Shown here: in pieces, positions 3,001 through 6,000 of the stretch
Layout of the letters: each line of letters opens with the position of its first letter
Position numbering within the stretch: position 1 is the stretch's first letter
Source: a virus
Lineage: Duplodnaviria; Heunggongvirae; Uroviricota; Caudoviricetes
Length of the DNA: 34,435 bases
Virus record (IMG/VR): IMGVR_UViG_2529293069_000011
Direction: 5' to 3' (one strand)
Made by a program: the position numbers

Positions 3001-6000
3001 GCACCGGCTGCAGCATGTTGCGTGATACCATTCCCGGAAATAGCACGACTGAGCGTCCACAGCTGCCCGGCAGTGACTCCGGCATAATGCCCCGTCAGCG
3101 ACAACTGGCGGTTAAATTCTTCCCCCTCCTTCTGACCGTCATACCAGGCTTTACCCAGACCATAGACGGCCGCGGCAATACCGCCAATAACCGCTCCTGG
3201 CATCATGCCTTTCGGTGACATCAGTGTGTCTATCCATCCGGCACGGTTAGCCAGCGTTATCCCGGATCCCCTCAGCGCCCCTAAATTGCCGCGGGCCAGT
3301 TCACCTATCAGAACGCCTATCTCCTGGCGGGCTGCTGCACTTTTCAGACCCAGCGAATGCGTGGCTTTTCCTGCCTGCTCCATTTTGCGGATATACACTT
3401 CTGCAGCACTGCTTACCCCCAACTGGGCTGCCTTAGCACGAAGCAACTCAGAAGATGAAAGATTCAGGCGGGTTGCCTGCTCTTTAAGCTGACGGATAAA
3501 CGCCACTTTCTGTCGGGTAGCCTCTTCCTCAGCCTGTGTAAGAACACGGGTTTTCGCAGTAACCTCAGAAATCAGCGCCAGATAATCCTGCTGACCAATC
3601 CCGCCACTGTTTCTGGCCTGTCGGATCTGCTGCTGAATACGCTGTAATTCCTGCAGCCCCGCACTGGCCTGTTTCACACTGTCAATCTGACGATAAAACG
3701 CAGCAGCCGCTTTATCCTGAGCCTCCGCCAGAGCCATGGCCTGCGCCTGTTCCTCGCGCATTTTCTGGCTCAGTGCCTCCATGCGCTGGCGGGTTTTCTC
3801 CACCTCGCGGGCCATGCGTTCATGAGCCTGTGCGTTCTTCTCCACCGTCTGCGCATGGACGGATGCGGCTGTTGCAGCCGAAGAAGCTGCCTGCGTTGTC
3901 TGCCGGGCGGCCTGAGTCTGACGCTCCATAAAACGCTGCATACGGGCAGAAGACCGTTCTGCATCGCTGGCTGCACCATTCAGAAGGTTTTTGATACGGG
4001 GAATTTCATTTTTAAACTCTGCCGCATCAATCCCCAAATCAATGACCAGGTTGGCTATCTGGTCCATAACGCACACCTCCGGAAATACCTTCCCCAAGAT
4101 GCATCAGTTCTTCGTCCGTTCGCTCCGGTATCCCGTTCTCTTCCGGTAAAAGGCTGAAATCAGCCACCGCAGCATCACTGCTGCCGGACACCATTCTCAC
4201 GATCAATGCCTTCAGCGAGGCAAACTGCGCATCCATCCACACATCACTGAAGCTCTGCATCCGGAAATAATCGCCCCACTCACCAAGCTCAGTGGCAGAC
4301 ATTTCCGACAGCATCCGCCGCCAGTCTGCCCGCCGGAACTCCCGGGCAAGCCGCATGACAAACTGCATTTCCCGCGTCAGGACTTTTCCGGCGTCAGCGC
4401 CTCATGCTCATCATCCACGGCATTATCAATGGCCCCCATACCGCTCAGCGACAGAACCATCTCCGCCCCCGCACCCAGGGCATCATACGACCATGTTGTA
4501 ATAACGGATGCGCAAAGCGTCTCTACATCCTTAGACTGATCCGCATTCCACAGTGAGCGGGAAACCAGCCAGGCATTGATATCCATCCCCATCCGCAGAA
4601 AAGCAATCTGTCGTTCAGCCTCCGGCAGTTCTCCCTCCCCGGCATCAAACTTTGCCGTTCGCTGCTGAACAAACGTCAGATATTCAATTCTCTGCAGCCC
4701 GGACAGCTCACTGAGCACCACGGACTGTTTTTCATAATTAAACGTGTCCTGTTTCAGAAACATCATGTTCTCCACCTGCAAAAAAGCCCCGCATAACCGG
4801 GGCAAATGATGAGTATCGTCCTGTTAACCTGCTGCGCTGACAGTCACCGCAGTCACAGCCACAAAATTCCCGTCAGCGGTCATGCCCACAATGCTGACAC
4901 TGCCCTGCTTCACGCCTTTTACCGTGGCCACAAGTCCGTTCAGGGTAACCGTGGCAGTCTGTGGATCTGACGAATGCACACTGATCGCTTTGTCACTGGC
5001 TCCGTCAGGTTTTACTGTAAAGGTCAGCGTGGTGGTTGCTCCCACTTTTACACTGGCAGACGCCGGTGATACTGTCAGCCCGGTAACGCTCACGGTTTCA
5101 GTGCCTTCCTCTGCCAGATACGGACGCCCCACACCGCTGATTTTCACAGTGCGGGTCATCACGTCTTTTGAGGCAATGGTTTTACCCAGTGAGCTCAGCC
5201 AGCCACGGAAAACATCAACAGTGCCGTTGGGATATTTGATACGAAACGCGCAGACTTCACCGGAGTCGAACAACTGAACCAGTTTTTTCTGCCCGCTGTC
5301 ACCCGGACGCCAGGCCAGCGTCGCCGAAGTATCACCAACGGATTTCTGCCCCTGGGTTGTCGTTTTCCAGTCTGCATCTTCATCATCGAGATAAGTGTCA
5401 TCTTCTGCATCAGCGGTCATTTCGCCAGGTTGCAGATCCTTCACCATCGCAAGACGCAGCCAGTCAGTGTCCGACAAAGGGTTCGCAAACGCATCGCCGT
5501 TGCCGGTATACATCCAGAACGTCGTCCCCGCACCTTTCGTCTTTGCCAGTGGATTTGGTGTGGTCATTACCACCTCCTTAATTCGTGTACGTGATCTGGT
5601 ACGTGATTTCCGCCATCGCCCAGGTGGCCATCTCATTATCACGTTGATAGTTAAAACCGAGTGGGATCAGGGTGTCGATGAGTCCGGAAAGTGCCGGTAT
5701 ATCATTCAGGGCAGGGAAAATGGTGCTCTCCATCCACATATCCAGCTCTGAATCCGGTGCCTGTGCCCGGATGAAGACGGCAATATGCAGAACAGCCTGC
5801 CAGTCATCTTCATCCGTCATTTTTCCGGTGTACTGAGCATCACTCAGCCACACCGCCACGGCAGGCAGTTCCTGCGCATCAATAAATGCCGGAAGCCCGT
5901 CAAAAAACGTGGCGCTGTCTCCACACTGTTCCCGAAGGCGTGCCAGTACGGCCTGGCGGATTTGTGTATGTCGGTTCATCGGGTCAGCCATAACCTCAGT

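Follow-up and report, generated by a model that had tools for sequence, protein, structure and literature searches.

A probable programmed −1 frameshift at G_GAA_AAG in a lambda-type G/T tail gene overlap

The tail genes G and T of phage lambda are joined by a −1 ribosomal frameshift (Levin, Hendrix, Casjens 1993; Xu, Hendrix, Duda 2004, 2013, 2014, cited in PMC5009743), with G and GT being made at a ratio of about 30:1 that depends on the modification of tRNA-Lys (PMC5009743, PMC3296357). The figure of 3–4% shifting is lambda's value, and the statements on lambda given here are based on the reviews PMC5009743 and PMC7618472 and on PMC3296357. The slip of tRNA-Lys to AAA is the basis of the lambda shift and also the dominant −1 rule in bacteria (PMC5009743, PMC4066793, PMC3296357). 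The most shift-prone tetramer in Escherichia coli is A_AAG, and heptamers with an imperfect P site, for example G_CGA_AAG, occur naturally (PMC5009743, PMC4066793). Here, we analyze the corresponding site in a Caudoviricetes record of 34,435 nucleotides (nt), IMGVR_UViG_2529293069_000011, the whole of which is called the window below. The site is located on the minus strand, as are all genes and elements described in the following, and the coordinates are window positions. Judged by all features for which its sequence allowed a test here, the site is to be regarded as an ordinary member of the lambda-type G/GT family.

Between the tail tube gene and the tape measure gene, the window contains two overlapping frames, G and T, with T in the −1 frame relative to G. 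The G frame (4377..4766) matches PF06894 Phage_TAC_2 with E = 3.8e-40, covering profile positions 1–123 of 126, and is annotated as gpG, a tail assembly chaperone of 129 amino acids (aa) from ATG 4766 or 128 aa from ATG 4763. Its 3' end reads ...GAG GCG CTG ACG CCG GAA AAG TCC TGA, with the stop TGA at 4379–4377, the last five codons being exactly those that had been given in an earlier note on this DNA. The T frame (4039..4401, with the stop TGA at 4041–4039) matches PF06223 Phage_tail_T with E = 5.1e-15, and tblastn to lambda T gives 3e-20. According to a map of the stop codons in all frames, a stop at 4404–4402 closes the −1 frame, which then remains open from 4401 as far as the stop at 4041–4039, that is, T is open from inside the 3' end of G, as the earlier note had stated. 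Since the −1 frame is closed at 4404–4402 and G ends at 4377, the joining of G to T is possible only in the 25 nt GGCGCTGACGCCGGAAAAGTCCTGA (4377..4401), where both frames are open.

This overlap contains one single in-register slip motif, the heptamer G_GAA_AAG at 4389–4383 (4383..4389). It lies inside the interval 4370–4400 in which the earlier note had placed a frameshift site, and it is the A-rich slippery stretch that the note had proposed there. No −1 stop is present between the opening of the frame at 4401 and the heptamer. An alignment with lambda had been suggested as the way to pin down the exact heptamer, and when it was run, G_GAA_AAG was found to fall exactly on the lambda G_GGA_AAG. 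The window heptamer is decoded as GAA AAG (Glu-Lys) in the zero frame and as GGA AAA in the −1 frame.

We consider it very probable that a programmed −1 ribosomal frameshift takes place at G_GAA_AAG, close to the end of G. In the proposed mechanism, most ribosomes would read ...CCG GAA AAG TCC and then terminate at TGA, to yield gpG of 128–129 aa. Presumably, a minority would slip back by one base with the tRNA-Glu (GAA) in the P site and the tRNA-Lys (AAG) in the A site. The tRNA-Lys would re-pair perfectly with AAA, and the tRNA-Glu would re-pair with GGA such that positions 1 and 3 match and a G is opposite U in the middle. The reading would then go on in the T frame (GTC CTG ACG...), the base 4383 being used twice, as the last base of AAG and the first of GTC. 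The predicted product is a G-T fusion of 242 aa, in which ...HEALTPEK is followed at the junction by VLTREMQFVMRLAREF..., and the T part of which (4383–4042, 113 aa) runs VLTREMQF...GGVRYGPDSQPGH. By analogy with lambda, the G part of the fusion would bind H and the T part would recruit V, and a low GT:G ratio would presumably be needed for the assembly of the tail.

It is important to point out that the heptamer is not a rare string in itself. GGAAAAG occurs 11 times in the window on both strands, compared with 5.8 expected, and a count of 11 is reached in 2 of 100 shuffles; the idea that the string is statistically unusual was thus rejected. One copy, at 3371–3365, falls within H and is out of the G_GAA_AAG register. 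The chance of finding an in-register A_AAR within 8 codons can be put at ca 6% per sequence, which is a rough estimate and not a computed value. That the site is more than a chance occurrence follows instead from its register, its position and, above all, its conservation. The sample consisted of 19 annotated loci, 80 loci from GTDB species representatives and 80 from IMG/VR, the latter two sets being gathered with the T-domain alignment as query; of these, 176 loci were usable, representing 79 distinct 72-nt contexts and 42 lineage clusters at 80% identity. An in-register N_NNA_AAR is present at the homologous position of the G/T overlap in all 176 loci, and the slip-prone sequence of the window occupies this family-conserved position.

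Among the 79 distinct contexts, the majority heptamer is G_GAA_AAG (61 contexts; this window, N15, phi80 and most enterobacterial prophages), and the lambda-type G_GGA_AAG is a minority variant (7 contexts). The remaining ones are G_GTA_AAG in Pantoea (3), C_CCA_AAA in Vibrio phages (2), G_GCA_AAA in Kluyvera and Ewingella (2), A_GAA_AAG in Morganella (2), A_AAA_AAG in Stx phages (1) and G_GGA_AAA in Providencia (1). Around the site, the preceding codon (CCG, GCG, CTG, TTG, ACG or GTG), the following codon and the type of stop are variable, and the distance from the heptamer to the G stop is 0, 1 or 5 codons. Regarding the closest relatives, prophages of E. coli O157:H7 and of other strains have module DNA that is 100% identical to that of the window, and among 5426 complete E. 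coli genomes, 1846 contain the module. The phages PhiR55_1, mEp460, cdtI and Ayreon are 97–99.9% identical to it, while Gifsy-1, Gifsy-2 and Fels-1 have ca 70% DNA identity, Gifsy-1 and Gifsy-2 being the closest divergent relatives.

The invariant core over the lineages is A_AAR, which corresponds to the tRNA-Lys moving from AAG (or AAA) back to AAA in the A site. The A_AAR core is also the only part of the heptamer that is fully invariant, the re-pairing in the P site would be poor in the Morganella A_GAA_AAG, the Pantoea G_GTA_AAG and the Kluyvera and Ewingella G_GCA_AAA, and shifting on the A_AAG tetramer is documented (PMC5009743, PMC4066793). All this would fit a slip of a single tRNA in the A site, for which the preceding G_GA would be irrelevant. 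This alternative has to be confronted with the first base of the heptamer, which is identical to the second one in 41 of the 42 lineages, over 10 different preceding codons, compared with 16.5 lineages expected from codon usage (p ~1e-16 if the lineages are taken as independent, an assumption that overstates the significance). The first base is the third, synonymous position of the codon before, and T-frame decoding in the fusion never includes it. The excess of matches at such a position is a signature of selection for re-pairing in the P site. In addition, the tetramer alone is near background without a stimulator (PMC4066793), and a conserved stimulator was not found here (see below). We therefore consider it unlikely that a slip restricted to the A site is the whole explanation. 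The P site appears to matter as well, and the pattern at base 1 fits a tandem slip in which the tRNA-Glu moves from GAA to GGA. Given the poor P-site re-pairing in the Morganella, Pantoea, Kluyvera and Ewingella variants, a slip in the A site alone may still be a contributor.

Another option considered was that the change of frame arises in transcription, by slippage of the RNA polymerase on the A run. The site does contain AAAA, but productive cases of such slippage use far longer homopolymer runs (Atkins 2016, PMC5009743). Furthermore, the conservation is specific for the register (N_NNA_AAR in the G frame) and includes base 1, which would be expected for the re-pairing of tRNAs but not for a slipping polymerase, so that the probability of this scenario can be taken as close to nil.

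We now turn to the question of whether T could be translated from a start of its own. The earlier note had claimed that T has no such start. Taken literally this is not the case, as the T frame has in-frame ATGs at 4368 and 4356, the first of which (4366..4368) is used by the Prokaryotic Genome Annotation Pipeline (PGAP) and in the mEp460 record as the beginning of a 109-aa 'T'. In substance the claim holds, since no start is conserved (an ATG in 2 of 42 lineages), no properly spaced Shine–Dalgarno (SD) sequence is present, and an invariant residue, E5, lies upstream of the ATG. If T were made separately from ATG 4368, either by independent initiation or by termination and reinitiation, no frameshift would be needed in this clade. 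The position of the ATG only 8 nt after the G stop is in line with this scenario, as are the two annotations and the occurrence of the 109-aa protein on at least 1000 contigs.

The initiation signals are, however, not what would be expected for such a start. The only SD-like element of ATG 4368, GGGAA, directly abuts the start codon with zero spacing, and its duplex energy of −4.3 kcal/mol is at the 25th percentile of all AUGs on the strand. For comparison, the SD sequences of H and G, both with normal spacing, have duplex energies of −10.8 and −6.4 kcal/mol, respectively, that of G being GGTGGAG. An independent start together with an SD sequence, which the earlier note had named as an observation that would speak against frameshifting, is thus not found at this position.

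The comparison of the lineages points in the same direction. The ATG at T residue 6 is present in this clade and in an Edwardsiella prophage, that is, in only 2 of the 42 lineages, and every other clade of the T alignment has Leu at this residue, which makes the ATG a lineage-specific Leu-to-Met change. In Gifsy-1, Gifsy-2 and Fels-1, this codon is CTG or CTT and the heptamer is the same. Up to and including residue 5, an ATG is absent from all 42 lineages, and 20 of them do not have a T-frame ATG until residue 24, which is part of the most conserved motif, LAREFxRxDWRxML. According to the T-frame alignment, the residues E5 and F8 are invariant, and in the stretch upstream of ATG 4368, which also includes a conserved V/A-L, the differences between close relatives (ACG/ACC, GAA/GAG, CTG/CTT) leave the T-frame amino acids unchanged. 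The conserved residues and the synonymous differences indicate that this stretch is translated in the T frame, and there is no start codon in that frame between 4401 and 4369. In tblastn, the similarity to lambda-type T sets in at the codons GGA AAA in the overlap. Finally, the start of T is annotated differently even in near-identical phages, at 4368 in mEp460 and at 4302 in Ayreon. The downstream frame thus has no conserved initiation signal, and ATG 4368 is a poorly supported start. On the basis of the SD strength and the positions of the start codons in the 42 lineages, an independent T start was ruled out as the main route, and we regard the separate synthesis of T without any frameshift as very improbable also for this clade.

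Returning to the frameshift at G_GAA_AAG, stimulators of the slip were sought because A_AAG alone is near background in the E. coli reporters of Sharma et al., where 5.6% is reached with a pseudoknot (PMC4066793). The 93 nt on the 3' side of the heptamer fold no better than shuffled sequences (z = −1.64). RNAalifold calculations on 41 lineage representatives gave −1.44 kcal/mol and one invariant helix of 4 pairs far downstream, with no compensatory change or covariation. On the upstream side, the candidate for an SD-like stimulator is GAGG (4400..4403), located 10 nt from the heptamer, which is the same spacing as in dnaX. Across the contexts, the potential for SD-like pairing peaks at spacers of 8–10 nt upstream of the heptamer, and 12 of the 42 lineages are in the best 10% of their own-gene controls (p = 6e-4). 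This peak is probably explained by the conserved Glu in the C-terminal motif of G, E-x-x-[TS]-x-E-K. Namely, at the GAGG site GAG is not preferred over GAA when compared with the rest of G (11/13 vs 75/119, p = 0.32), and the GAGG of the window is ordinary, with 21% of the own-gene controls being as good. In view of the negative codon-choice control and the ordinary value for the window, the upstream SD-like stimulator is not supported.

The strongest SD-like elements in the survey, with ca −10 kcal/mol, are GGGGAGGA in Pantoea (loci L068, L070 and L072) and AGGAGGTGG in Sodalis (L060). The former accompanies G_GTA_AAG, the heptamer with the poorest P-site re-pairing, and the latter accompanies G_GAA_AAG. 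These elements could represent a compensation in individual lineages, although the signal over the whole family did not pass the control for codon choice.

It should be noted that a number of points weigh against a frameshift at this site. The heptamer is not of the canonical X_XXY_YYZ type, as its bases 1–3 are G, G and A and its bases 4–6 are AAA; it is an A_AAG tetramer with partial re-pairing in the P site (GAA to GGA). No conserved downstream hairpin of the kind found 5–9 nt after the slip site in dnaX and insertion sequence (IS) signals was detected, pseudoknots not being searched for explicitly. With A_AAG near background on its own and no stimulator supported, the efficiency of the shift is not predictable from the sequence. 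In this clade, moreover, the in-frame ATG 4368 follows shortly after the G stop. The GT fusion of the clade is a predicted protein, the exact sequence of which is absent from a collection of ca 15 billion proteins.

A more far-reaching proposal can be formulated at this point, although as a whole we find it rather doubtful. Here, G_GAA_AAG would be the predominant heptamer of enterobacterial lambdoid prophages and would function with no conserved RNA stimulator, the GT:G ratio would be more sensitive to thiolation in the host than that of lambda, and ATG 4368 might add some free T by reinitiation in this clade. In E. coli, tRNA-Glu and tRNA-Lys both carry mnm5s2U34. With this modification on both of the slipping tRNAs, the GT:G ratio could be more sensitive to the thiolation of host tRNAs than in lambda. 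If this were true, the tail yield of these very common prophages could likewise be more sensitive to the thiolation state of the tRNAs of the host.

The G/T pair is embedded in a tail module with the lambda-type order Z-U-V-G-T-H, and profile searches assign each of the six products to the Pfam family of its lambda counterpart. The lambda-type tail genes Z and U are located at 5976–6554 and 5578–5991, respectively. Directly upstream of G is V (4824..5567), which encodes the major tail tube protein, a homologue of lambda V with a C-terminal Ig-like domain (Pfam Phage_TTP_12, 6.5e-67, and Big_2). In the E. coli O157:H7 record, which is 100% identical, this gene is the 744-nt coding sequence 'phage tail protein'. 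In the gap between V and G, a terminator scan identified a terminator-like hairpin, GCCCCGGTTATGCGGGGC, followed by a T run (4777..4803). The hairpin (4803–4777) has a stem of 6 base pairs, all of them GC, and is followed by TTTTTT; mEp460 and Ayreon both have an annotated rho-independent terminator at this position, as does N15, where it is labelled as putative. With such a terminator, G, T and H would be transcribed less than the gene of the abundant tube protein V. The mEp460 record has a second 'rho-independent terminator' inside T (L002:936-953, ca 4165–4148 in the window), which was not returned by the consensus scan of 3900–5000. At the 5' end of G there are two adjacent ATGs (4766–4761), of which PGAP takes 4763 and the mEp460 and Ayreon records take 4766. 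The spacing of the SD sequence, with GGAG ending 5 nt before 4763, slightly favors the second one.

The tape measure gene H (1002..4067; Pfam TMP_2, 4.4e-49, and Tape_meas_lam_C, 3.2e-22) has its translation signals inside the 3' end of T, with the SD sequence GGAGGTG at 4080–4074 and the ATG at 4067–4065, and T extends 29 nt beyond the start of H. These signals (4080–4065) are encoded by the T motif GGVRYG (GGA GGT GTG CGT TAT GGA), in which the residues G102, G103 and R105 are invariant. The conservation of this motif may thus in part reflect the translation signals of H. In lambda, the start signals of H are presumably located inside T in the same arrangement.

Concerning the sample of loci, it can be added that a group of them (L075-L087, L093, L095, L097 and L098) have G/T segments identical to those of lambda, including the 64-nt overlap and the heptamer context. 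These segments are on short contigs, mostly with low coverage (ca 1 where the contig name gives it), in assemblies labelled as Neobacillus, Oceanobacillus, Kitasatospora, Chromatium, Leeuwenhoekiella, Shewanella, Pseudomonas, Tardiphaga, Paenibacillus, Enterococcus, Marinifilum and Pseudoxanthomonas. They are almost certainly the result of library contamination by lambda DNA and not real prophages. Three other loci, L021, L026 and L067, are enterobacterial prophage contigs in metagenome-assembled genomes labelled as Bacillota, Proteobacteria (soil) and Geobacteraceae. The T sequences of L021 and L026 are 98–100% identical to that of the window and the junction of L067 is of the phi80/mEp043 type, and these contigs are likely mis-binned.

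Overall, the observation made in the earlier note is real and its interpretation is correct, and both are already known, since the kind of system, the variant heptamer (in N15) and the identical junction (in Gifsy-1 and Gifsy-2) are all present in public records. A literature search for GGAAAAG returned irrelevant matches only. The biological import is small, as this is a textbook recoding event in the tail module of a very common E. coli prophage. There is some value for annotation, because the public records of the clade hold a truncated 109-aa T that begins at a non-conserved ATG and never the 242-aa GT fusion. An in-register N_NNA_AAR within the G/T overlap would provide a simple rule for automated pipelines. 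The survey also shows that G_GAA_AAG, and not the G_GGA_AAG of lambda, is the usual heptamer in the family.

We finally compare the site with the known systems. The E. coli dnaX and IS signals, which combine A_AAA_AAG with an SD-like element and a hairpin or pseudoknot, involve the same movement of the A-site tRNA-Lys from AAG to AAA (PMC5009743, PMC4066793). The GAGG located 10 nt upstream is similar to the arrangement in dnaX, but it is probably accounted for by the conserved Glu codon, and, unlike in those signals, no conserved downstream structure was found here and the P-site triplet is not XXX. With lambda, the locus shares the order V-G-T-H, the Pfam families of G and T, the location of T in the −1 frame, the lack of a conserved T start, the homologous position of the slip site and the A-site codon AAG. 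The differences are in the P site, where lambda has a tRNA-Gly with a wobble change on G_GGA_AAG and the window a tRNA-Glu with a mismatch at the middle position, and in the distance to the G stop, which is 5 codons with a 64-nt overlap in lambda and one codon with a 25-nt overlap here. The G and T proteins of lambda are ca 38% identical to those of the window. Genes 14/15 of N15 (NC_001901) have an identical heptamer in the same register and position, and the N15 record has a misc_feature 'slippery sequence for -1 translational frameshift' (L008:604-610) that reads GGAAAAG. The preceding codon in N15 is GCG instead of CCG, the G stop is 5 codons downstream, and the T part is ca 43% identical; the heptamer of N15 and the window is also shared by phi80, HK225, mEp043 and most of the sampled enterobacterial prophages. 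The closest divergent relatives are the Salmonella prophages Gifsy-1 and Gifsy-2. They differ in having CTG or CTT at T residue 6, without the ATG, but the 15-nt junction CCG GAA AAG TCC TGA is identical to that of the window, and in their records T is described as 'part of ... gpG by translational frameshifting'.

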